DNA of 54,287 nt from a virus (taxonomy: Duplodnaviria; Caudoviricetes): positions 1-54,287 of the IMG/VR virus record IMGVR_UViG_3300017987_000113; one strand, written 5' to 3'. Under the pieces are notes generated by a model that ran no database searches, was not told the origin of the DNA, and saw only the letters and a program-made list of their open reading frames with translations. How positions within the stretch are numbered: position 1 is the stretch's first letter; each line of letters starts with the position of its first letter. A program made the translations under genes and the position numbers. Shown here in pieces: positions 7,169 to 52,638 of this stretch.

Positions 7169-8230
7169 TTAAACCAACCTTGAACGGTCTACCGCTTTCG
7201 GTGCCGCTGGTGGCCCTGCCTGTTCCTTTGGAGTTACGCCTAACTTTGTGCTAATATCCTTCTTTATGGATTCCTTCATATCACTGATCTTCCCACGCAT
7301 TTGTTTTTCTCCGAGCCAAACCAGCGGTGCGAGCTTTAATATAAACTCATCATTGAATATTAATTCTTCGAACTTATTCATCCGTGTTTTGGGATCTCTT
7401 GTAAACATTGCCGGAAGATCTTTTATGAATTGAGCCCTATCTGCTTCGCTAAACTCTAAGCCCATAAAAGATTTCTCATTAGCTATAGTTTTTATATGAT
7501 CAGCTATAAGCTGCTGATTATCCTGTTCTGATTGCTGGAACCTCTGTATTTCTGCCTGCTGTGCAGCCTCTCTTTGCTTTGCACCTTTGGCATCGAGTTG
7601 CTTCTGCCAATCTTCCTTCATGGCGTTGGCCTCTCTATCCAGCTCTATACGGTTTTTACTGGAAATATACTCTGAAATATCTTCCTCTGTATATCCGTTA
7701 GGGTTTTCTTCAGTCTGGCCGTTAGTCTCCCTGAGATAAAATTCCAGAAACTTATCTGAGGGTAAACCAAGAACAGAAATTTCCTGGCTCTGTTGAATCA
7801 ACCATTCACTCCTGTTAAAATCTTCTCCCTGGCTGGCAGTAACATAATTCTGAATGAAAGGATCATTTAGAATCTCTGCCTGGGGAGGTCTTACATTGTT
7901 TTCGATAGCTTCAATGATAAGATCTGCCTCTGTTCTGCCTTCCGGAATATTACCGCTTGTTATAGCTTCCGGAATAACAAAAGGAGTTTCTTCTGTGCCA
8001 TACTTCTTAGAAATAGAATCCCATATAGGATTAACCGTTACTGTTTCCTGTGTCTCTGTAGTCTGCTGTGTTTCGGTAGTCTCTTGCGTTTGTGTTTCAG
8101 TAGTTTCTTGTGTTTCTACTGTTTCCACGGTCTCTATAGTTTCTGCCGTTTCCGGCTCTACTAAAGAATTATGATCCACCGCTGCAGTCTCCTGAGTTTC
8201 TTCTGTTGCATTTACATCATCTGGTACCAT
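7169..8230 (-). CDS. Putative scaffold protein
   Basis: Acidic low-complexity N-terminus (ETQETT repeats) and coiled coil; lies between portal and MCP. Confidence 0.55.
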   Translation of the reverse strand: MVPDDVNATEETQETAAVDHNSLVEPETAETIETVETVETQETTETQTQETTETQQTTETQETVTVNPIWDSISKKYGTEETPFVIPEAITSGNIPEGRTEADLIIEAIENNVRPPQAEILNDPFIQNYVTASQGEDFNRSEWLIQQSQEISVLGLPSDKFLEFYLRETNGQTEENPNGYTEEDISEYISSKNRIELDREANAMKEDWQKQLDAKGAKQREAAQQAEIQRFQQSEQDNQQLIADHIKTIANEKSFMGLEFSEADRAQFIKDLPAMFTRDPKTRMNKFEELIFNDEFILKLAPLVWLGEKQMRGKISDMKESIKKDISTKLGVTPKEQAGPPAAPKAVDRSRLV

Positions 8231-18022: not shown

Positions 18023-21000
18023 CTATTTTGTCCACTCATCTCTGGAGCCTATTGTATTAACCTCTATATGGGCATCGATCTCATGTAAAGCTGCATCTTC
18101 ATCATAGGTATCAGCTGCATCGCCAGCATCTCTGAATAACCTACAAATAAGCATACAGCTTATAGTCAATCCTGTTCCTGATATACCTGAAAATGACGCC
18201 ACCTGGTGCTTCTTAGCCGTACCGTCAGCTGCATCATTAACATAAATAAGAGTAGTATTGCCGAAAGTACCATCTACATTGGCTACGGTATATTCCAGGC
18301 CCCAGCGTACTGTACCGGTATCTGTATCCATGGGCGACCAGTGTACGTGCATTTCAATGTCAGTACCCTCTTTATAAGCATGAGGGATCTGCATCTCAAA
18401 ATATACTTCCTCTTCAGTATTCTTATTAAACAGATAAGTATAAACTCCCTGAGAAGGCGTACCGCCACCATCATCCATGAATTTTGCAAAGTCGGGTGCA
18501 TTTGCAGATCCACGGTTAGTCGCAGAAAGCGGAACCCTTACATCTTCCCAGTATGTTTCAAGCAATGTAAAATCACCTTCAACAGTAGTATCTCCTGTAA
18601 TGGCTATCTGGTCTCCATCGATCTTCAGGCGTGAAGCCATTGATGTGCCGTTATGCACTTGAATATCGAGTTGAGAATCCAGATTAGGTGAAGCCCAGGT
18701 AGATCTACCGGAAGCAATAATCTGTATTCCTGTATATTCATCATCCCTATCATCATGTCCTCTGAATTGTAATACTCCTAAATAATCTCCACTTACTACA
18801 CGGTCATAACGGTTAAACCATAACTCTGAAGCAGAAGCGGCTGTTGTATCGTTGCTTGTCAACTCTACAGTAATGTTCCTGGTTGAACTTGTAGAACCGA
18901 ATATTTCTATAACATCTGAAGCTGGTGCATTTATCTTTGCCCTGTTAGAAACGGCCCCTGCAGTACCACCAAGGATAAGATAATTACTCGCAATAACCCT
19001 GGCATCTCCATTAACATCGAGTTTAGCATAAGGAACCTGTGTTCCTATACCTACAGAAGATCCGGTATCACTAATTTGCTTACTATAAAAGGCTGCCCAA
19101 ACATTTGCCAGAGCACCCAGGTTAATAGAATCAGTTGTATCAGGATAAAAAGCAGGATCATTGGGAGCAGGTGTAGTATCAAGGTTTATCCTGTTAAGAT
19201 CAACAGCATTATCAATCAACACCAGGCTCTCTGTAGTGGCATTACCTCCGTATATCTCTCCCTCTACCGTAAGATCATCATTGATAGTTACCATTCCGGT
19301 AGAAAAATCTCCGTGAATTAAAGGAGTTGCAGTATTAGAATTGGCTATATATAACTTATTATCTCCCGTTTCATTTGCACCTGCATAATAACCGATAAAC
19401 ACATTGCTTGATCCTGTAGTTGTAGATCCGGCCCAAGCTCCAAGAAAAGTATTATTACTTTCTGTAACCATATCGGTACCGGCATTATATCCAACTACTG
19501 TATTATAGCTCCCAGCCGTAAGAGCATCAGAAGTAGTTGCACCAATAGATATATTTCCACTGGAAGCATCTGCAGAAAGCAGAGCATTATGACCAATAGC
19601 TATATTATTACTCCCTGTTTCTAAATTTATCAATGGACTAAAACCAATGGCTATATTATATCCTGCAGTAGTATATTTTGTTAAAGCATTATGACCAATT
19701 CCAATATTAGCAGATCCGGTTGAGGTTCCACCAATATCCCCTTTTCCTGATTGTGATCCTATAAATACATTTTGACTTCCTGCTGTAGCATACCTCATTG
19801 CTTCATAACCAAAAGCACAATTATCCTGACCCGTTGTGCTGTAAACCATACTATCATGGCCAACGGCTGTATTTCTTAAACCCGTTGTTAATGAATACAT
19901 ACTATTGCGACCTATAGCAATAGAAAGATCGCCTGTAGCAGTATATAATGCCTGAGAGCCTATAGCGATATTATAGTCACCAGAAATATTAGTATGAATA
20001 GTATTATAACCTATAGCAACATTATGCGTACCATCTGCTGTATTAAACAATGATTGAAATCCTATTCCTGTATTAGAAGTTCCCGTAGTAAGGTTTAAAA
20101 GTGCTCCTGCACCAATAGCAATAGCTCTGCCAAAATTAGATGTTGTAGAAACCCCATGCCCGGCATTACTGCCAAGTAAAACATTATCATTTCCAGTTGT
20201 TAGTTCACCTCCAGCACCGACACCTACAATAACATTACTTGCCCCGGTTGTAATATCATAACCGGCCTGGTATCCAATTATAGTATTCTGCAACCCCGTA
20301 GTAAGACTAAACCCCGCCTGATAACCAAGCCCAACATTTCTGTCTGCGTCAGAAGTAGCCGTAACACCCATTCCAGCTTGATCACCTAAAAATACATTAT
20401 ATTGCCCCGTCTGATATCTCCCGGCATAACTACCAACATAAACATTATAAGAAGAAGCTGTATTCTCATATCCGGCATTCTTGCCAATAACTACATTGCC
20501 ATTGCCAGAAAGCAAGGAATAAGCAGCATCGTGACCAACTATTACATTAGAACCACCTATTGTTAGATCATGCCCAGCATTGTGCCCAGCTGCAACATTA
20601 TTAGTGCCACCTAAACATGATACCATAGAATGATAACCAATAGCAGTATTATAAGATCCGGTTGTAATAACACTTAAGACCTCATAACCAACAGCAACAT
20701 TGCTCCCTGCGGTATTTGTTCCTGATGCTCCTCTTCCTACATTAGATCCTATATAAACATTGGAACCTGCCGCTGTATATTGACCTGCAAAAGTCCCTAT
20801 CATCACATTCTCTGTCTGAGTAGTTAAGACTATTCCTGCCTGGCGGCCTATAATAATATTATTTTCGCCAGTAGTTACTGAATAAGCACTTTGAAAACCA
20901 ATCGCAATATTACTATCTCCATCAGTAAGACTCTGTAATGCAAAAGAACCAATAGCTACTGTATAAAGATAACCTGCACCTACAGATCCTTGTCCTGCAG

Positions 21001-22714
21001 TCATTCCTATTATTACATTATTATCACCTGTTGCATTTTGTCCAGCTCCACTACCTACATAAGTATTTGAAATACCTGTTGTTGTATTAATGCCTGCCTG
21101 ATGCCCAAGATAAGTATTTGAATTACCTGTTGTAATATTTGCTCCGGCCTGTGAGCCAAGTACCGTATTAAAATTACCAGAAGTAATATCAAGAAGTGCC
21201 TGGTATCCTACTGCAGTATTATTAGCAGCCGGTACTGTTCCGGAAACGCCTTTACCTGCCTGATGCCCAATAAATACATTATGGCTGGACTCCGTATAAT
21301 AACCTGCCTCAAAGCCAATAGCAATATTATTATTGCCGGTAGTAACAGAAACAAGACTACTGGCTCCAAAAGCAGTATTATAACTACCAGTTGAAACATT
21401 GTATCCCGCATTTGTACCTACCAATGTATTGTAACTACCAGACCCAGCAGTACTGGAGCCTGATCCTGCACCAACGGTTGTATTAGCAGCTCCGGATGCC
21501 CTGTTCCGAGAAGATCCAAGACCCACCGCAGTATTACTGTAGCCTGCAGTAGAAGCATATAAAGCCTCATGGCCCAGAGCTGTATTAGAACTCTGTGTAG
21601 CATTAGAATACAAAGCCTGGTATCCGATAGCTGTATTTTGTGTGCCGCTTGTATTGCTATTCATTGCATTAATACCAACTGCAGCATTAAAATTATTACC
21701 ATCATCACTTGTACCGGAACCTGATCCAAGATAAACACTCGATACATCTGAGACAGCATCCGAAAGATCATCTATTGCTGAAGCACCGCCTCCGCCACCG
21801 GCACCAAGATCAACAGTAGATCCGTTTATCCTGGCATACATACTTGTAGTAGTAGTCCATATATCTCCGTTCTGAGGAGCAGAAGGAGCTGTACCATGTG
21901 CAATATTAAGGCTTGCTCTTGATGTAGTAGAAGCAGAACAAAGCACCCGATCTCCAAAACTTACTTCTCCAGCCTGGGTTGATATAGCATAATTTTGTGC
22001 AGTTCCTCCACTTACATTTCCGATTAAAAGACCATAATTTTGTGTAGATGTTCCAGTTACACTTCTGATATAAACACCATAATTATTTACACTGCCACCT
22101 GTTATGTCTCCGATACGTACTCCTGTATTGCCCAATGTACCAAGGCTAAAATCTTCTATCCAGACACCATAAGCATTATCGATGGCAGATGTTCCACCAT
22201 TAGAATTTTCCAAACGTACACCAGAATAAGTATCTGCTGTCATTGTGGTACCGGGAAGAATAACAAGATTTGATTTTAATCCGGCCATAGTTCCATATTC
22301 GGAATCTGTCAGATTAAAAATAACACCAAACATTCCACTGGCCATATTTAAAACACCCCCTCCGGTATTATAAACCACTCCACCAGCTCCGGCTGCTTCA
22401 TATATCGTCGTAGGTACTGTATGATTAATAATACCATAATTAGTTGACACTATAAAATCCATATCATCAACACCAGCTGTTGTTGCATAATATAATGCAC
22501 CTGCAGCACCTTGCAATCCCGTTCCAGTACCAGGAGAAATTATAGTTACATCTGATTTAATCCCTGCATCTGCCAATGATACTCCACCAGGAATAGGTGT
22601 AAATACTCTTTGATGTTCGATAAGCCCATTGATACCTTTTTCATACTCGGAGCCCACCTTTAAAAACGAAAAGGTATTCTTTCTGTGAATACCTGTACCT
22701 CTTTCTTGTTTCAT
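18023..22714 (-). CDS. Tail fibre/adhesin with long YadA-head-like (N-x-A/F-I-G-x-x-A) repeat region
   Basis: Dozens of ~14-aa NxAxGxxA repeats; Gly/Thr/Asn-rich; VGIGT motif. Confidence 0.75.
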   Translation of the reverse strand: MKQERGTGIHRKNTFSFLKVGSEYEKGINGLIEHQRVFTPIPGGVSLADAGIKSDVTIISPGTGTGLQGAAGALYYATTAGVDDMDFIVSTNYGIINHTVPTTIYEAAGAGGVVYNTGGGVLNMASGMFGVIFNLTDSEYGTMAGLKSNLVILPGTTMTADTYSGVRLENSNGGTSAIDNAYGVWIEDFSLGTLGNTGVRIGDITGGSVNNYGVYIRSVTGTSTQNYGLLIGNVSGGTAQNYAISTQAGEVSFGDRVLCSASTTSRASLNIAHGTAPSAPQNGDIWTTTTSMYARINGSTVDLGAGGGGGASAIDDLSDAVSDVSSVYLGSGSGTSDDGNNFNAAVGINAMNSNTSGTQNTAIGYQALYSNATQSSNTALGHEALYASTAGYSNTAVGLGSSRNRASGAANTTVGAGSGSSTAGSGSYNTLVGTNAGYNVSTGSYNTAFGASSLVSVTTGNNNIAIGFEAGYYTESSHNVFIGHQAGKGVSGTVPAANNTAVGYQALLDITSGNFNTVLGSQAGANITTGNSNTYLGHQAGINTTTGISNTYVGSGAGQNATGDNNVIIGMTAGQGSVGAGYLYTVAIGSFALQSLTDGDSNIAIGFQSAYSVTTGENNIIIGRQAGIVLTTQTENVMIGTFAGQYTAAGSNVYIGSNVGRGASGTNTAGSNVAVGYEVLSVITTGSYNTAIGYHSMVSCLGGTNNVAAGHNAGHDLTIGGSNVIVGHDAAYSLLSGNGNVVIGKNAGYENTASSYNVYVGSYAGRYQTGQYNVFLGDQAGMGVTATSDADRNVGLGYQAGFSLTTGLQNTIIGYQAGYDITTGASNVIVGVGAGGELTTGNDNVLLGSNAGHGVSTTSNFGRAIAIGAGALLNLTTGTSNTGIGFQSLFNTADGTHNVAIGYNTIHTNISGDYNIAIGSQALYTATGDLSIAIGRNSMYSLTTGLRNTAVGHDSMVYSTTGQDNCAFGYEAMRYATAGSQNVFIGSQSGKGDIGGTSTGSANIGIGHNALTKYTTAGYNIAIGFSPLINLETGSNNIAIGHNALLSADASSGNISIGATTSDALTAGSYNTVVGYNAGTDMVTESNNTFLGAWAGSTTTGSSNVFIGYYAGANETGDNKLYIANSNTATPLIHGDFSTGMVTINDDLTVEGEIYGGNATTESLVLIDNAVDLNRINLDTTPAPNDPAFYPDTTDSINLGALANVWAAFYSKQISDTGSSVGIGTQVPYAKLDVNGDARVIASNYLILGGTAGAVSNRAKINAPASDVIEIFGSTSSTRNITVELTSNDTTAASASELWFNRYDRVVSGDYLGVLQFRGHDDRDDEYTGIQIIASGRSTWASPNLDSQLDIQVHNGTSMASRLKIDGDQIAITGDTTVEGDFTLLETYWEDVRVPLSATNRGSANAPDFAKFMDDGGGTPSQGVYTYLFNKNTEEEVYFEMQIPHAYKEGTDIEMHVHWSPMDTDTGTVRWGLEYTVANVDGTFGNTTLIYVNDAADGTAKKHQVASFSGISGTGLTISCMLICRLFRDAGDAADTYDEDAALHEIDAHIEVNTIGSRDEWTK

Positions 22715-26881: not shown

Positions 26882-27013
26882 TGCTTACATTTAATTGTTT
26901 ATAGTTATCCTGGTACCGCTTTGCATGGTCTATGAGTGCCTGGTTAAAAGCCTTCATGGCCTCTGCACCCATAAGCAATACCAACTCTCCATTTTCATCA
27001 TAATACATCATAA

Positions 27014-31456: not shown

Positions 31457-31520
31457 ACGAACTTTAGCACTCCGAAAGGAGATCATATTTTTTTATTCAT
31501 AGTTTTCAGATTTTAAGTTT

Positions 31521-31553
31521 AAGGAGGCAGTATAGTTACTGTCTCCTTTTTTT
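31521..31553 (+). terminator. Intrinsic terminator
   Basis: AAGGAGGCAGTA-TAGT-TACTGTCTCC followed by T7. Confidence 0.75.
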
Positions 31554-31599
31554 ACGTCTTCAAGTTAATTTAATATATTACAAACCAAAATTATCTATT

Positions 31600-32235
31600 A
31601 TGTTATTAACTATTCCTAAAATTAAAAGCTTGGAGTATAGGTTTAAGATACGTAGTATCTCACCATACCTCCAGCACAAAATGAATGATCAAGACCTTCA
31701 AGAGTGGCTTGAGCACAGGGGTCATATCATCGAAAACAAAAGACAAAACATTCCTCACGAAATAATGGCTGATTTTCACAGCTATATTGATGAGGATGGT
31801 AAGTATTACTTTCCGACAAAACATCTCAAGCAATCGCTTGTTGGTGCCGGAAGACTGACTAAAGGAAAGGTAGGTAATTCTACACGATCACTCACAAATG
31901 TTGTAGCTGGTATGTGGAGAATAAAACCTGAAAGAATTTATATCGGTCACTGGGATAGTATTATGATTGAATCTGCAATAAATCACAGTGTAAAGGCCAG
32001 GGTGTTACCTATAAGACCTCAATGGGATTGTCTGGAATTTGAATTCTTCTTAACAGTAATGAACGACACTATGACAGATAAAACCGTCGTAAAGATCGTA
32101 CAGGACTCAGGACTATTTCAAGGGATAGGAAACTACCGGCCTGAACACAAGGGAGAGTTCGGTATGTTCGAGATTGTAGAAGCTGAAAGGCTGACAACAA
32201 AAGCAAAAGGAAGACCTAAGAAAACAGCTGCTTAA
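31600..32235 (+). CDS. Stand-alone RAMP/Cas7-like protein (Vipr-like RNA-guided effector candidate)
   Basis: N-terminal strand FKIRSISPYLQH, GKYYFPTKHLKQSLVGAG, IRPQW and C-terminal Gly-rich loop GLFQGIGNYRPEHKGEFGMFEI, characteristic of RAMP folds; no other cas genes nearby. Confidence 0.75.
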   Translation: MLLTIPKIKSLEYRFKIRSISPYLQHKMNDQDLQEWLEHRGHIIENKRQNIPHEIMADFHSYIDEDGKYYFPTKHLKQSLVGAGRLTKGKVGNSTRSLTNVVAGMWRIKPERIYIGHWDSIMIESAINHSVKARVLPIRPQWDCLEFEFFLTVMNDTMTDKTVVKIVQDSGLFQGIGNYRPEHKGEFGMFEIVEAERLTTKAKGRPKKTAA

Positions 32236-32241
32236 TAGCAT

Positions 32242-32272
32242 AAAGGGGAGGCTTTAATAGTTTCCCTTTTTT
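32242..32272 (+). terminator. Hairpin plus T-tract between RAMP gene and array
   Basis: AAAGGGGAGGCT-TTAAT-AGTTTCCC followed by T6. Confidence 0.6.
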
Positions 32273-32274
32273 GA

Positions 32275-32845
32275 TGTAATGTTTTGTGGTGTTGAGTACT
32301 TTAAAGCAACGTAGCGTATGGTGAAGTCCAGTTAAGCGAAGTATTGTATGGTTGAGTGTTTTTAACTTCATGTATGGTATTGTGAATTACAGCACCGTTT
32401 GGCGAAGTAGGGTGATGTATAGTATTTTGTGGTGTAATAAAGTAAAGTTCCGTCCTGTTATGCTATGTGCTGTACGGTAGGGTTATGTATTTTGAAGTCC
32501 AGTGAAGTTCTGCATAGTGATGTAATGTATAGTATTTTTATGTTATGTTATGTGGAGCAATGTAAAGTGTGGTTGTGTGTCGTATTTTTAACGTATTGTA
32601 TCGTCAGCTATAGTATGGCAGGGTTAGGTAAAGTTAAGTTAAGTGTTTTATGGTTATGTGAGGTATTGTAAGGTGTCGTTCTGTTAAGTTTTTTATAATA
32701 CTTCTTGTAGGGTGAGGTCTTGTACTGTAACGTAAGGCAAAGTAAAGTGTTTTATTGCTGAGTCTTGTGTGGTGTGGTAAGGTAAAGCAAAGCATTTTAT
32801 CGTGTAGCGGAGTATTGTCAAGTAAGGTAAACTATAGTATTTTTC
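32275..32845 (+). repeat. Non-coding 5-nt-periodic NGY-NN array, about 11 T-tract-delimited units (putative guide-RNA array)
   Basis: e.g. AGCAA CGTAG CGTAT GGTGA AGTCC AGTTA AGCGA AGTAT TGTAT GGTTG AGTGT TTTT; roughly 100 pentamers with near-invariant G at position 2 and pyrimidine at position 3. Confidence 0.9.
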
Positions 32846-32867
32846 AAATTTAAAATAAAACAAAAAA

Positions 32868-33218
32868 ATGAACAAATTTAAAGAATTAATTATCAAGAGT
32901 GGCCCTGAGATAAAAGCTCAAAGGGCACAAACGCTGGCAGATGCTACCTTCAGAAAGCAAACAGCATTAGTGAACAAACTGAAAGATGAACTGGCAGAGA
33001 TAGATCTGCAGATCGAGCAGATCACAGATATTGCACCTACCAATACATACAGTTTGAAACCTGGAGGCAAGTCCTTTGATCCTTCTAAATGGGTTGAGGA
33101 GTTACACAGGCTTAAACGTGAAAGGTATAATACCGAGATCGATTTAAGCATTGCTGTTGAAACACTGAACAGCTGGTTTGGAGAAATCCCTAATGTTACA
33201 ACAGATCAAAAGGCATGA
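32868..33218 (+). CDS. Hypothetical coiled-coil protein
   Basis: 116-aa ORF directly after the array. Confidence 0.65.
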   Translation: MNKFKELIIKSGPEIKAQRAQTLADATFRKQTALVNKLKDELAEIDLQIEQITDIAPTNTYSLKPGGKSFDPSKWVEELHRLKRERYNTEIDLSIAVETLNSWFGEIPNVTTDQKA

Positions 33219-33718
33219 AGGTTTATCTGGCTAAATCTAACAAAAGCTCTGTCCAGGATATAATCTTTTTAAATGATTTATTCCGGAAATACAATATTGA
33301 GGTTGTTGAGCATAAAGGTGGAACATATAGCTATCTTCCTATTAAGAAAACTGATTACCTGTTTTTAGTAGCACCGGCAAACAATGTTACTTATAGATAT
33401 GAAGGCACAAAGCTACATACAGGGAAAGGCACAGGATCCGAAGTTAAGTATTTTCGTGAGCGTGTAGATATGGATAATGCTTATGCTTTAATACCAGGCA
33501 CTACTTTGGTTTATCCCATTATTCACATTCAACATTCGGATGCAGAAGAATGGGCAACAGATTTTTATAAGTTGACCTTAGCTGATATTTCTTTAAAGGA
33601 AGCTGATTACAAGCGTATGTTTCACCAGATTTCTTCACGCAAAACAACTGAACAAAAACAACCTGAGTCAAAGAAGAATATAATCGACTTTAAGGATATT
33701 GATTTTAGCGATTTATAG
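33215..33718 (+). CDS. Hypothetical protein (possible nucleoside deoxyribosyltransferase/TIR-like fold)
   Basis: MKVYLA..., TDYLFLV and GKGTGSEV pattern; weak similarity. Confidence 0.4.
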   Translation: MKVYLAKSNKSSVQDIIFLNDLFRKYNIEVVEHKGGTYSYLPIKKTDYLFLVAPANNVTYRYEGTKLHTGKGTGSEVKYFRERVDMDNAYALIPGTTLVYPIIHIQHSDAEEWATDFYKLTLADISLKEADYKRMFHQISSRKTTEQKQPESKKNIIDFKDIDFSDL

Positions 33719-46230: not shown

Positions 46231-47643
46231 ATGAGTGAACAAAAATTTGGAAAGTACAAATGCTCAGACTGTGGCCATGTTTATGATGATATAGGCGAAG
46301 GTCGTTGCCCTAAATGTAAAAGTACCGAAATAAGGCTAAATACTACTAAAAAGGATGAGCCTAAAAAGAAAGAAATCAGAGAAAAAGTAGAACAGCCAGA
46401 TATGTTTGGTAGCCAGGAAACAATACTGAAAAAACCTGTAACTAAAAAGGGTGCTTACAGAATGTACTTATGTGCTGAATGCGGTGCCATTATAACTGAA
46501 CAGCAAAAGCCTGATACCTGTCCTGTAGCTGGTTGCAGCAGTACTACAATTTATCCTTTAACTTCTGATAATAAAAAGAAGGTAATTGATAGTGGTGTTA
46601 AACCGTGGAAATATGAAGATGGTATGGTTAAGCCTGGTGAAAAGCAAGAATGGATATGTGATAAGTGCCATACTTTATTTAAAGCAGAAAAGCATATTGA
46701 AACATGTCCTTTTGAGGGTTGCAATGGAGGTACAAGTATATGGACTCAGGCTAATATAGACAGGCATATAGCTTCAGGTAAACCTGCATTTAAAGTTAAT
46801 AAAGAAACCGGTGAAGTAACCGATATACTTAAAGGTAAAACTTTAGGTGGTGTCGGTGTAGATCCTAAAGAGATACCTGATGAAGTTTCTGAACCAGATC
46901 CAGATCCAGTTAAGGATGATAGCTGGAAACTTGAAAAAGACAAAGCTATTAAAGATGATACTCCGGATGAATCAACAGAAAGTGCAATTGATACTACAGA
47001 GGAAACAGTGGATGATGAACCAGTGGAAGAAAAATCCTATGAACAAATAGTAAAAGAAAACAATGAACAGGCGGGTGATGAAAATATTACTATAGGTGCT
47101 GATAGCGTAACTGAAACAACTACCGGCTCCGGATTAGCTATATCACATAAGGGTAATATGAACTTCTTTACACAAATGGAGAAATACCTGGGCAAAGGAT
47201 TAAAGTCTATTACTATTACTGTTCAAAAGAACCTTAATGAACTTACGGTTGTCTTTCTTCCTGTATCTGCAGCTGATGATCCTGCTACACACAATTTTAT
47301 TCCATTAACCTTTACTGATACTGCAGAAAAACTGGACAGCGATTTCTTAGATGATATTGCCTCTCCTATGGAGAAAGTAACAGATTTCTGTAACAATGTA
47401 AAAGCTTTTGAAGACCAGCTTAAAGAAAAAGAGAAACAAACTAAAAAAGCTAAGGATGAGAAAGAGAAAAAGGAAAAAGAATACAAAGCCCTTATATCCA
47501 AAGGCGATAAAGCCATGGAAGCGAAAAAATACCAGGATGCTCTCGGACACTACGGAAAGGCCAAAAGCATTAAGGATACAAAAGAAGTTAAAGAGAAAAT
47601 TGATAAAGCCAGCAAAGGTGGCCAAAATACTATGAACCTATGA
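46231..47643 (+). CDS. Zinc-ribbon repeats fused to PRTRC system protein E-like domain
   Basis: Three CxxC...CP motifs, acidic linker, then MNFF...LTVVFLP....DPA...IPLTFT.TAEKLD..F...I..P..., ending in a TPR-like helix pair. Confidence 0.7.
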   Translation: MSEQKFGKYKCSDCGHVYDDIGEGRCPKCKSTEIRLNTTKKDEPKKKEIREKVEQPDMFGSQETILKKPVTKKGAYRMYLCAECGAIITEQQKPDTCPVAGCSSTTIYPLTSDNKKKVIDSGVKPWKYEDGMVKPGEKQEWICDKCHTLFKAEKHIETCPFEGCNGGTSIWTQANIDRHIASGKPAFKVNKETGEVTDILKGKTLGGVGVDPKEIPDEVSEPDPDPVKDDSWKLEKDKAIKDDTPDESTESAIDTTEETVDDEPVEEKSYEQIVKENNEQAGDENITIGADSVTETTTGSGLAISHKGNMNFFTQMEKYLGKGLKSITITVQKNLNELTVVFLPVSAADDPATHNFIPLTFTDTAEKLDSDFLDDIASPMEKVTDFCNNVKAFEDQLKEKEKQTKKAKDEKEKKEKEYKALISKGDKAMEAKKYQDALGHYGKAKSIKDTKEVKEKIDKASKGGQNTMNL

Positions 47644-48113: not shown

Positions 48114-48811
48114 AAACATCAGCGGTAAAAAATATATTAGATTCTATCATACAAGATTTTGCTCACAGAGGAGTACCTTCAGCTTTAGGAGATTTTATAA
48201 AAGAACAGGCCTATATAACTGGTGGTTGTATTCCTTCTATGTTAATGGGTGAATTTGTCAATGATATAGATGTTTACTTTAGAAAAGATCCTAAATTAGC
48301 AATTAAGAAAAGCAATTTTACAGAAAAGACAAAACCTATATCTGATACTGAAAATGCTCTTACCTTTGAATTTAAACGTGGAGAACATACCTATATCATT
48401 CAGCTTATAAAAGGTTTTTATGGATCTCCTCAAGGTATTACTGATAGCTTTGACTGGGCACATATCAGATCTTATTATGATGTTAAGAAAAAGATACTGG
48501 TAGTACCTCCTGAGACTTATAGATTAATTACTGACAAAGAATTGATCTATACCGGAAGTGATTATCCATTAAGCAGCTTGCTGCGTATCCGAAAGTATAT
48601 GAAGAAAGGCTGGACAATGGATATTGTAGAAGGTATTAAGATAGCTATAGATATTCAGAAGGTAAACTTTAAATTACGCAAAGAGCTGGAAAGACATATT
48701 AATGGAATAGATCCTATGTACTGGACAGAGATAAGCGATAGTTTAAAACCTAAATATAATAGCTTGGAAGACCTCTGGATGGATTTGTGTAAATTTAAAC
48801 TTGATGAATAA
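48110..48811 (+). CDS. Pol-beta-superfamily nucleotidyltransferase
   Basis: YITGGC...NDIDVYF, FDW, R.RKY.KKGW. Confidence 0.75.
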   Translation: MKTSAVKNILDSIIQDFAHRGVPSALGDFIKEQAYITGGCIPSMLMGEFVNDIDVYFRKDPKLAIKKSNFTEKTKPISDTENALTFEFKRGEHTYIIQLIKGFYGSPQGITDSFDWAHIRSYYDVKKKILVVPPETYRLITDKELIYTGSDYPLSSLLRIRKYMKKGWTMDIVEGIKIAIDIQKVNFKLRKELERHINGIDPMYWTEISDSLKPKYNSLEDLWMDLCKFKLDE

Positions 48812-49085
48812 GGAAGATTTATATACCATTATCGTGAAGCCTAAGTCCTCTTGTGATGCCTGTGAGCTTGATCTTAAAAAATTATGGACAAAACGTAATT
48901 TTAAGGCTATAGAGCAACTAACTGGACATGATATGACCAACAGGTGTATTAAGTGCTTTAAGCCCTTAAAAAGCCCTAAATCGATCCGTATGTGTATGGG
49001 GCCCACCTGCAGGAAAAAGTTTAAAGCCGATTACTGGAAACTTAGGCAAATTGATATGTTTAAAGAAGAAGAAAATGACCAATGA
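48801..49085 (+). CDS. Zinc-finger protein (DUF6011-like)
   Basis: RCIKCFKPLKSPKSI...MGPTC. Confidence 0.65.
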   Translation: MMNKEDLYTIIVKPKSSCDACELDLKKLWTKRNFKAIEQLTGHDMTNRCIKCFKPLKSPKSIRMCMGPTCRKKFKADYWKLRQIDMFKEEENDQ

Positions 49086-51217: not shown

Positions 51218-51896
51218 ATCTTCTTCTATGTACTCTGACAATCCGGAATATATGGATGCAGAAGAAATGGAAGATAAATACTACATAGAACTGGCTACAA
51301 TAAGAAACGGCCAGATAGGTGAAGCAAAACCTATATCCTCAGAAGGTATAAGAAATATCCGAAATGTGTTTGCACCCAAAGGATATGAATTTATAAGATC
51401 CGGAACTCTGATAAACAGAAACCTGATTTATTTTAATACCAGTCCTGCAGACAGATTGTATATCTGGCACAGACCCGCACAACCAACACACTTTAATCAT
51501 GTTAATGAGAAGTTTTGTGGTATAGTTAATATGCCTAACCTTCTTTTTGTAATGGCTAAAGGAAGTCTTTCTGTATATGCTGTAAAAACCAGCAATATAA
51601 AAGCCTCTACAAAATTATTCTTTTCACCCTTACCTAACAATATGGGAAACAAAATATGTATGGGTACAGCAAGAGGCAAGAAGTCTGAAACTGATATAAT
51701 GAAATATATTACATCCTGGGAAGATGCTTATCTGAAAAGTAATTTCTCTGATCATGGTGCAGATATAAAAATGCTTACAGAAATCGTAGGCAGCAAAAAA
51801 CCTTTTCCTACAAGCAAGCTAAAGCCTGTTAAAGATTTAACCGTAGAAAAACTTATACGAAAAAATGAGACACTACATTACTTCAGAACTGATTAA
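51156..51896 (+). CDS. PRTRC system protein B (prokaryotic E2 family D)
   Basis: W..PAQ, MPNLLF, LSVYAVK, LFFSPLPN....ICMG, WE..Y..S.FS. Confidence 0.8.
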   Translation: MFITRSSVSVTEPKLLLIVYESSSMYSDNPEYMDAEEMEDKYYIELATIRNGQIGEAKPISSEGIRNIRNVFAPKGYEFIRSGTLINRNLIYFNTSPADRLYIWHRPAQPTHFNHVNEKFCGIVNMPNLLFVMAKGSLSVYAVKTSNIKASTKLFFSPLPNNMGNKICMGTARGKKSETDIMKYITSWEDAYLKSNFSDHGADIKMLTEIVGSKKPFPTSKLKPVKDLTVEKLIRKNETLHYFRTD

Positions 51897-52638
51897 TTCT
51901 GTTAATCCTATTACGGTAACTATGGTAGGAGCTGGTGGTACCGGATCAGAACTGGTAAATAAATTAGCCAGGATGAACCATGCTATGCTCAAACTGGGCC
52001 AGCAAGGATTAAAGCTACAACTTGTAGATGATGATATTGTTACTGAAGCTAATGCAGGCAGACAACTGTTTACAGAAAGTGATATAGGCTATAATAAAGC
52101 CTCAGTACTTATAAGCAGAATAAACCGTTTCTATGGATTTGCATGGAAGGCTATACCAAGCAGAATACTTAATGTCGATCAGGTAATAGCTCACCGGAAT
52201 AATATTCTTATTACTTGTGTAGATAAAGCTGTTACCCGTAAGCTATTTGCCCGGGGCGTAGGTAAATATCCTAATAACAGTAATTATGCCCAGCCTCAGC
52301 GTACAGGGTATTACTGGTTAGATACTGGTAATGACAGAGACACCGGCCAGGTAATATTAGGTACGATAAATTCTATCGAGCAACCGGAATCTGAATATGA
52401 AACTGCAGATCGTTTACCTAACGTGGTAGAGGAGTTTCCTGATATGAAGGATAGCAAGAATGATGGGCCCAGTTGCTCTTTAGCAGAAGCCCTGGAACAG
52501 CAAGATCTCACTATCAATAATATGGTAGCTTCATGGGCATACTCTTTACTGTGGTCTATGCTAAACAGATACTATCTGGAATACAGAGGAGTATTTATTA
52601 ATCTTAATACCATGCGTACAAACCCTATCGCTATATGA
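51865..52638 (+). CDS. PRTRC system ThiF/E1-like protein
   Basis: VGAGGTGS, DDDIVTEANAGRQ.F, ITCVD...R, YWLDTGN...GQVILG, PSCSLAEALEQQDL.IN. Confidence 0.92.
   Translation: MRHYITSELINSVNPITVTMVGAGGTGSELVNKLARMNHAMLKLGQQGLKLQLVDDDIVTEANAGRQLFTESDIGYNKASVLISRINRFYGFAWKAIPSRILNVDQVIAHRNNILITCVDKAVTRKLFARGVGKYPNNSNYAQPQRTGYYWLDTGNDRDTGQVILGTINSIEQPESEYETADRLPNVVEEFPDMKDSKNDGPSCSLAEALEQQDLTINNMVASWAYSLLWSMLNRYYLEYRGVFINLNTMRTNPIAI

Follow-up and report, generated by a model that had tools for sequence, protein, structure and literature searches.

The question raised by the locus described here is what a virus encodes in a long intergenic tract in which two bases recur every five nucleotides (nt) and the bases between them change from one repeat to the next. 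The tract lies on the + strand, at 32273-32845 of the window, by which is meant the whole DNA stretch of 54,287 nt that was analysed (positions 1 to 54,287 of the viral record IMGVR_UViG_3300017987_000113; Duplodnaviria, Caudoviricetes). It sits in a 633-nt gap between an open reading frame (ORF) at 31600-32235 (+) and another at 32868-33218 (+). An initial annotation, made from the letters of the sequence, had described the tract as about 11 guide-sized units closed by T-runs and had proposed that each unit is a separate guide. The evidence assembled below makes it probable, with good confidence, that a crAss-like phage here carries a VIPR (Viral Interference Programmable Repeat) system and that the tract is its guide-RNA array, with guides delimited by a protein filament and by U-tracts.

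VIPR was first described in 2026 as a phage system, and according to the text, Methods and legends of that preprint its protein Vipr is a small early-branching RAMP, kin of Cas5/6/7, and its vrRNAs consist of 9-16 (or 10-12) YNNGG repeats, in which GGY is fixed and NN is hypervariable (10.64898/2026.04.26.720920). The NN dinucleotides are described there as reading double-stranded DNA (dsDNA) with one base skipped per repeat, usually at the codon wobble position, and the Methods list NNNGG, YNNNG and NNNNG as alternative repeats. As far as the texts of the VIPR preprints describe it, dsDNA is bound without a protospacer-adjacent motif. In the structure of SUSP1 Vipr (10.64898/2026.04.26.720927; PDB 36pp), as presented in the preprint text, each repeat binds one protomer, in which H17 and D177 read G1, R138 and W178 hold G2 and R179 belongs to the pocket for the pyrimidine, and a 3' pseudoknot caps the filament.

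The five-nucleotide array and the adjacent Vipr-like gene

A dynamic-programming parse of positions 32270-32860 resolved the array into 116 in-register pentamers of the form N-N-x-G-Y. The fourth position is G in 96 of the 116 pentamers, the fifth is a pyrimidine in 114 (T in 101, C in 13), and all other positions are variable. The third variable position, x, carries T in 42, A in 39, G in 23 and C in 12 of the 116 pentamers, without a fixed G, and is A or T in 81 of them, as in WGT/NN, one of the 21 non-canonical clusters named in the text of 10.64898/2026.10.21.760802. Read from the pyrimidine, the repeat is Y-N-N-x-G, i.e. YNNNG. G-Y pairs at a spacing of 5 nt number 83 in the array, as compared to 27.2 +/- 4.6 (maximum 39) in 300 dinucleotide-preserving shuffles and to a median of 4 in all other 573-nt segments of the record, both strands included. 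No second array turned up when the record was scanned more loosely on either strand, and the single 6-of-8 site of that scan, at 26908-26952, is without the closing motif described below. Tandem Repeats Finder recognised just two short period-5 stretches within the array, the whole window gave no match in Rfam at gathering thresholds, and no match was obtained when positions 31500-33600 were compared by blastn to the phage collection. The array RNA is predicted to be weakly structured (z -2.5), and a terminator scan revealed no hairpin inside the array.

The ORF at 31600-32235 (+), designated vipr, encodes a protein of 211 amino acids (aa) that is recognised from its sequence as a Vipr homologue and is predicted, by profile match, AlphaFold2 model and Foldseek, to be the Cas7-like RAMP partner of the array. 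Its stop codon precedes the array by 38 nt, so that the array is co-located and co-oriented with vipr, co-orientation being a criterion of this analysis and not a published one. A profile built from this ORF and two relatives matches chain D of PDB 36pp, 'SUSP1 Vipr protein', with an E-value of 5.5e-14 over positions 1-185, i.e. over nearly the full length; the single sequence of the window reaches E 0.014 against the same chain. The protein shares 42% identity (E 2e-53) with the product of an ORF flanked by two such arrays in phage contig L065, and the profile retrieved 3292 representatives at E<=1e-3 from a library of 1.84 billion proteins. An AlphaFold2 model calculated from 24 relatives has a mean predicted local distance difference test score (pLDDT) of 90.9 and replaced an earlier, poor model from 3 sequences (pLDDT 63). 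When this model was compared to the PDB by Foldseek, the best of 96 matches at E<=1e-3 were type VII Cas7, Csm3, Cmr4 and Cas7-11; no Vipr entry was among these matches, the structure library ending on 8 April 2026. A Vipr protein, by definition a minimal RAMP with RRM core, G-loop and thumb, is thus encoded at the locus, and its G-loop reads G-I-G-N-Y-R-P...G..G. In Pfam and PHROGs the protein carries no functional name (phrog_4652, unknown), and a word-index protein search returned 2 proteins only.

One of the structural features of this Vipr that bears on the relaxed repeat is the composition of its G-loop. The SUSP1 contact residues H17, R138 and R179 are kept as H26, R139 and R180, D177 is replaced by Asn178 in the window and by Ser in most relatives, and W178 is replaced by Tyr (Tyr or Phe in the family). 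At loci with a clear G-Y array and Asp at the D177 position, x is G in 65-80% of the pentamers (5 of 5 loci), as against a mean of 15% (range 0-45%) at the 74 loci with Ser, and the window, with Asn at this position, shows G at x in 25% of the pentamers. On this sequence comparison, the unfixed first G of GGY in the subfamily fits the loss of the G-loop aspartate that binds G1.

As compared to the type II VIPR of SUSP1, in so far as the preprint texts describe it, the locus shares a phage-borne small Cas7-like Vipr gene adjoining intergenic arrays of 5-nt fixed/variable repeats, about 8-12 repeats per guide, and conservation of the contact residues H17, R138 and R179. It differs in the repeat, which is x-G-Y/NN instead of GGY/NN, in the Asn that takes the place of the G1-reading Asp, in the low identity of Vipr, in the absence of a recognised vap1-like gene, and in having eleven abutting units in one array, whereas SUSP1 has four vrRNAs. 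Furthermore, the type II 3' pseudoknot tail of about 40 nt is absent, and a closure of about 10 nt, A-W-A-G-Y followed by W-U-U-U-U, is found instead, one T-rich pentamer being followed by the next unit. Closer likeness is seen with the non-canonical YNNNG (10.64898/2026.04.26.720920) and WGT/NN (10.64898/2026.10.21.760802) arrays, which, as compared by their texts and legends, have the same relaxed motif with only G-Y fixed and mostly A or T in front of it, about 10 repeats per unit and a Vipr-like fold nearby. The canonical GGY is not present, the first position being G in 23 of the 116 pentamers; this excludes the canonical form and not the VIPR family, because the preprints, in their available text, accept the YNNNG and WGT/NN variants. 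Both GGY and the type II tail are characters of clades, which the preprints have already relaxed. The requirement for tandem 5-nt fixed/hypervariable repeats, about 9-16 per vrRNA, finds its counterpart in units of 8-12 pentamers plus one of 5.

With class 1 CRISPR Cas7 filaments the locus has in common the RAMP fold, one protomer per fixed number of nucleotides and a thumb that flips bases periodically, but the period is 5 nt here and 6 nt there, and direct repeats of 23-50 nt with spacers are missing here. A CRISPR array was rejected on the lack of such repeats and spacers, on the lack of any other RAMP or Cas-domain match among the 66 window ORFs scanned against Pfam, and on the lack of an Rfam match. 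A TIGR-Tas array was also rejected, since the period is 5 nt as against about 18 nt in the description given in the text of 10.64898/2026.10.21.760802, and the neighbouring gene encodes a RAMP and not a Nop-domain protein. The locus has the testable features that define the family, namely a Vipr RAMP, 5-nt fixed/variable repeats, guide-sized tracts and a phage carrier. The array is a new example of the already published VIPR family, here in a crAss-like phage, and does not open a new kind of system.

Units and their closing motif in the window and among relatives

Eleven T-rich pentamers (ACTTT, GTTTT, ATTTT and TTTTT) split the array into units of 5-12 pentamers, which start at 32273, 32303, 32364, 32429, 32494, 32539, 32590, 32650, 32699, 32754 and 32799 and contain, in this order, 5, 11, 12, 12, 8, 9, 11, 8, 10, 8 and 8 pentamers. 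Unit 1 (32273-32302, like all others on the + strand) is short, ends in ACTTT and may be a leader or a truncated unit, so that the array contains about 10 full units of 8-12 pentamers each and one short unit. Unit 2 (32303-32363) ends in GTTTTT, where one extra T shifts the register by +1, and the same shift accompanies the ATTTTT of unit 6 (32539-32589). Units 3 (32364-32428) and 4 (32429-32493) both end in ATTTT and include degenerate pentamers, two in the former (AACTT, GAATT) and one in the latter (GTAAT). ATTTT also closes units 5 (32494-32538) and 10 (32754-32798), GTTTT closes unit 7 (32590-32649) and unit 9 (32695-32753, in which an ATAA insert precedes the pentamers), TTTTT closes unit 8 (32650-32694), and ATTTTT closes unit 11 (32799-32844). 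The pentamer that precedes the T-run is semi-conserved in the array as ATAGT, TAAGT or AAAGY.

That this division is a property of the array is supported by the density and the spacing of the closing motif. Within the array there are 11 copies of this motif, G-Y-N-Y-T-T-T, or 19.2 per kb, as compared to 1.38 per kb elsewhere on the + strand, and it is hence 14 times denser there. Its successive spacings are 60, 66, 65, 45, 50, 61, 45, 59, 45 and 45 nt, and when 11 marks were distributed at random over 115 pentamer slots, not one of 100,000 trials kept all gaps inside the observed range. The T-rich pentamers also keep the 5-nt register, with 7 of the 10 spacings divisible by 5 (a chance of about 9e-4 if p = 0.2 for each), and the three remaining spacings are explained by one extra T or the 4-nt insert. 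The segmentation into about 11 units that had been proposed initially is thus upheld by the parse, the density of the closing motif and the spacing test, and the unit starts given at that time agree with the computed ones to 1-2 nt. The quoted endings AGTATTTT, AGTGTTTT, CGTATTTT and AGCATTTT are all present in the array, which has TGTATTTT, AGTTTTTT and AGTACTTT as further unit endings. The strings of variable dinucleotides reported for individual units were correct overall, except that one dinucleotide had been dropped in each of units 2 and 6.

Relatives were fetched by alignment of close Vipr relatives and comprised 15 viral loci together with 80 metagenome loci, the best of 127. Some contigs are represented twice, once in each collection, and identity of the Vipr proteins to that of the window is 35-47%. 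Using a simple caller, x-G-Y arrays were found in 91 of the 96 sequences that have a Vipr of this subfamily, the window counted, and of the 150 arrays called, 148 have the same orientation as vipr. No array was called in the remaining five, of which three are contigs whose Vipr is identical and two are short fragments. When 15 phage records (1,049,170 bases) were searched on both strands, 22 of 24 array calls adjoined vipr, and an unbiased scan for (GTNNN)x8 led to loci containing 25 Vipr-like ORFs.

Among 282 unique G-Y pentamer runs in the subfamily, 182 are 7-12 pentamers long. A logo of their ends shows A (.53), W, A (.71), G and T in the last pentamer, followed by W and four positions at which T has a frequency of.55-.61, after which the G-Y period resumes in phase. 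This closure is found in abutting units, as in the window and in loci L143 and L129, in units followed by a conserved non-periodic spacer of 30-55 nt (L138, L141), and in solitary units of 9-11 pentamers in short intergenic gaps (L159, L168, L177). Furthermore, L159, L168, L171 and L177 have their units, each of 9-11 pentamers, dispersed one by one through several short intergenic gaps within 4-6 kb around vipr, and these units end in ..AGTATAGA(A/T)TTTTT or ..AAAGTAAAGAATA. Loci L129 and L144, whose Vipr proteins are 96.8% identical, have one identical unit of 11 pentamers in common, with T-rich pentamers at its bounds, and their remaining units are different or partly alike. The unit, closed by a T-rich pentamer, is therefore the module of this system. 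The earlier proposal that guide-sized units represent modules of an RNA-guided system gains support from the adjacent Vipr homologue and from the conservation of the closing motif in the subfamily.

When 16 window proteins were compared by tblastn (E<=1e-5) to the 14 other phage genomes of the subfamily, only Vipr was matched in every genome; of the other 15, DnaB has matches in 1 genome and the remaining 14 in none. Because Vipr alone is common to all 14 genomes, the vipr-array module is spread across unrelated phages. These 14 Vipr-bearing phages are not obvious competitors of the phage in question, as no other tested gene is shared.

More distant Vipr-like ORFs are also accompanied by 5-nt arrays, with other fixed bases (viral loci L037, L047, L052, L062 and L079; L045/L046; L024). 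Array types and G-loops observed at the distant loci are AcAnn with GIGSGRT or GIGSRRT, G-A-C with GIGVWRP, and GTC/NN with GIGAGRP, and such arrays resemble the CAC/NN and GAC/NN clusters named in the text of 10.64898/2026.10.21.760802.

Proposed guide production and target reading, and rival explanations

By homology with SUSP1, the + strand of the array would be transcribed and Vipr would polymerise on the RNA with one protomer per pentamer, each protomer holding the fixed G and the pyrimidine, so that the two bases that follow the pyrimidine would stay free to pair with dsDNA in the order NN-skip-NN. The A-W-A-G-Y pentamer could serve as a minimal 3' handle that replaces the SUSP1 pseudoknot, and the filament would end at the W-UUUU pentamer: no protomer is expected there, because neither a G nor a held pyrimidine is rightly placed in it. 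The U-rich stretch exposed in this manner may be where host nucleases cut or trim the transcript, each unit giving a separate RNA cut or bounded at its U-tract. The predicted products are separate ribonucleoproteins of about 45-65 nt, which, by analogy, would silence competing mobile elements. A terminator-like hairpin before vipr and none in the array fit either one transcript comprising vipr and the array or a start between the two. A more specific proposal is that the structured 3' tail has been replaced in this subfamily by an in-register, protein-free W-UUUU pentamer, with one transcript split into some eleven short filaments by the G-Y grip alone; this stronger version is held to be rather unlikely. 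If true, it would amount to a punctuation of the 5-nt reading frame for which no ribozyme, hairpin or dedicated nuclease is needed. As a further possibility, the freed third variable base x may join in the reading of the target, which would turn the NN-skip code into a triplet code.

The gapped code that had been proposed at the outset, with skips at wobble positions, is the code of the published vrRNAs as described in the preprint text. The composition of the N1N2 dinucleotides fits the first two positions of sense codons best (-3.863 as against -3.920 bits per dinucleotide), a weak and compositional signal. An apparent depletion of stop triplets in N1N2x (171 versus 240 +/- 12) was rejected as evidence, as it mostly reflects avoidance of TAG/CTA and TGA is not depleted. 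Substitutions between related units are distributed as 216 at N1, 212 at N2 and 198 at x; most of the pairs are chance similarities at the 70% threshold, which makes this comparison uninformative.

Several observations weigh against the interpretation as a VIPR guide array with separated guides, of which the lack of a target is the first. Exact one-skip patterns of 10 or 11 dinucleotides, taken from units 2, 3 and 4, had no match in the viral contig collection, those of units 2 and 4 had none in the species-genome contig collection, and the pattern of the unit common to L129 and L144 had none in the viral contig collection. Mismatch-tolerant local searches with skips of 0-3 and up to 227 subfamily guides, run also in versions with x included against databases of 0.15 Mb, 0.73 Mb and 1.05 Mb (15 phage genomes), gave no excess over shuffled guides. 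The check suggested with the initial annotation, an enrichment of gapped matches over shuffled controls, was accordingly negative in these small databases, which neither refutes nor supports the guide reading, and no self-target above shuffles was found in the window's own genome. The exact scans in the large collections covered 3 of the 11 window units, and since this coverage is partial and the local databases are tiny beside that of the preprint, the outcome is a blank and not a refutation. Secondly, transcription of the array, its strand, the RNA ends and their processing all enter the proposal by inference. Thirdly, if the last one or two pentamers act as the handle, some units are left with 6-7 guide dinucleotides, and no recognisable vap accessory gene, which typically though not universally accompanies vipr, is present at the locus. 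Fourthly, the association between the G-loop aspartate and the first G is a consistent pattern and not an independent correlation in phylogenetic terms, the loci with Ser forming essentially a single clade. Finally, the register is kept across 7 of the 10 unit junctions, which separate ribonucleoproteins would not need.

This continuity of the 5-nt register, seen across the same 7 junctions in the window and in phase in the family logo though not needed by separate guide RNAs, may reflect array growth by duplication of whole pentamers or assembly of the protein along the whole transcript. The latter leads to the best-surviving rival, in which the VIPR array remains uncut as one long transcript within a nearly continuous Vipr filament, the U pentamers being flexible protein-free hinges and the linked guide segments working jointly, for instance at adjacent sites of the same target. 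Besides the register, which most window junctions maintain and which the family logo shows resuming in phase beyond the T pentamer, the absence of any hairpin, ribozyme or Rfam element between units speaks for an uncut transcript. However, three junctions break the register, the same closure also ends solitary units in intergenic gaps and units with non-periodic spacers, and close relatives exchange units singly. Published vrRNAs are moreover discrete RNAs of <=100 nt, and in the legend of fig. S18 'staggered' arrays, in which vrRNAs abut with 1-nt overlaps, are said to produce individual vrRNAs (10.64898/2026.04.26.720920). The window array shares with those the abutment of vrRNAs, the end of one being the start of the next, and differs, as judged from that legend, in having a whole T-rich pentamer between units instead of a 1-nt overlap. 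According to the preprint text, small-RNA sequencing confirmed only the ribozyme-interspersed and the single-vrRNA architectures. On balance, an uncut transcript is considered quite unlikely.

It was also considered whether each unit is a small gene of its own, in which transcription would end at the T-run and begin again at a separate promoter for the following unit, without any processing. Solitary units in intergenic gaps of relatives do end in the same T-run, and the conserved 30-55 nt spacers of L138 and L141 could hold promoters. In the window, however, there is no room for promoters, since its units abut with 0-4 nt between them, the T-runs lack a preceding stem, and a scan for sigma-70-type promoters gave nothing in excess of shuffles (10 versus 6.4 +/- 2.7), although promoters of the phage and its host lie outside the type covered by the scan. 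Independent unit genes are hence regarded as very improbable.

A feature acting at the DNA level (for example a pentanucleotide microsatellite that has diverged, or a region for protein binding or replication priming) or a functionless decaying remnant, to which the lack of a target and first-sight analogies to T7-type primase pentamers and TRAP-like 5-nt spacing could point, is scarcely credible in view of the coupling of array strand to vipr (148 of 150 arrays) in phages with which the window has no other tested gene in common, the fixed G-Y amid three variable positions, the conserved unit closure and an intact Vipr ORF with its RNA-contact residues kept. TRAP-like rings on triplets spaced by 5 nt, T7-type primase pentamers, a coat filament with 5 nt per subunit and an anti-Shine-Dalgarno sponge, all early analogies, were dropped on the homology to Vipr.

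Phage context and implications

Assignment of the phage as crAss-like follows from Pfam sequence matches in the window, where Crass_capsid is matched at E 3.9e-20 and tail ring protein 2 just above the cut-off. Just upstream of vipr, at 31521-31548 (+), the terminator scan found the terminator-like hairpin mentioned above, with 12 pairs followed by a T-run, which probably closes the preceding transcription unit. Downstream of the array, two ORFs of 116 aa and 167 aa occupy 32868-33718 (+) and gave no significant match in Pfam or the PDB. Homologues of both (33% and 31% identity) stand directly upstream of the array in L210 (3598-4177), in 1 of 95 related loci, and the two may be accessory genes that form a clade-specific pair. 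Related-locus searches with single proteins of the two flanking ORFs gave nothing useful.

Elsewhere in the window, a replication-side gene block at 46231-47643, 48804-49085 and 51865-52638 (+) is matched in Pfam by PRTRC system protein E (E 1.5e-23), DUF6011 and the ThiF family (E 7.2e-14), and resembles a ParB-related/ThiF-related-cassette-like gene set. At 8048-8125 there are tandem repeats of 18/24 nt, and a 45-nt unit is repeated 2.2 times at 21988-22084, inside an ORF of 1563 aa at 18023-22714 (-).

With respect to what was already described, the words 'crAss' and 'Bacteroid' are absent from the VIPR discovery preprint and the satellite preprint as far as their main texts go, though the supplementary taxon tables may list a crAss-like example, and 'crAss' is absent from the available text of the language-model VIPR preprint. 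Modestly new are the tail-less, in-register array of eleven units, the conserved A-W-A-G-Y / W-U-U-U-U closure, and the change of Asp to Asn or Ser that is consistent with a relaxed first scaffold base. The guide reading reached in the initial annotation is essentially the published logic of VIPR.

Thus, a VIPR system with an unusually large array of about 11 guides is placed in a crAss-like phage. The array represents a compact natural design for multiplexed guides, with 45-65 nt per guide and no structured tail. The change of Asp to Asn or Ser together with the loss of the first G provides a simple and testable hypothesis on how Vipr sets the grammar of its repeats.

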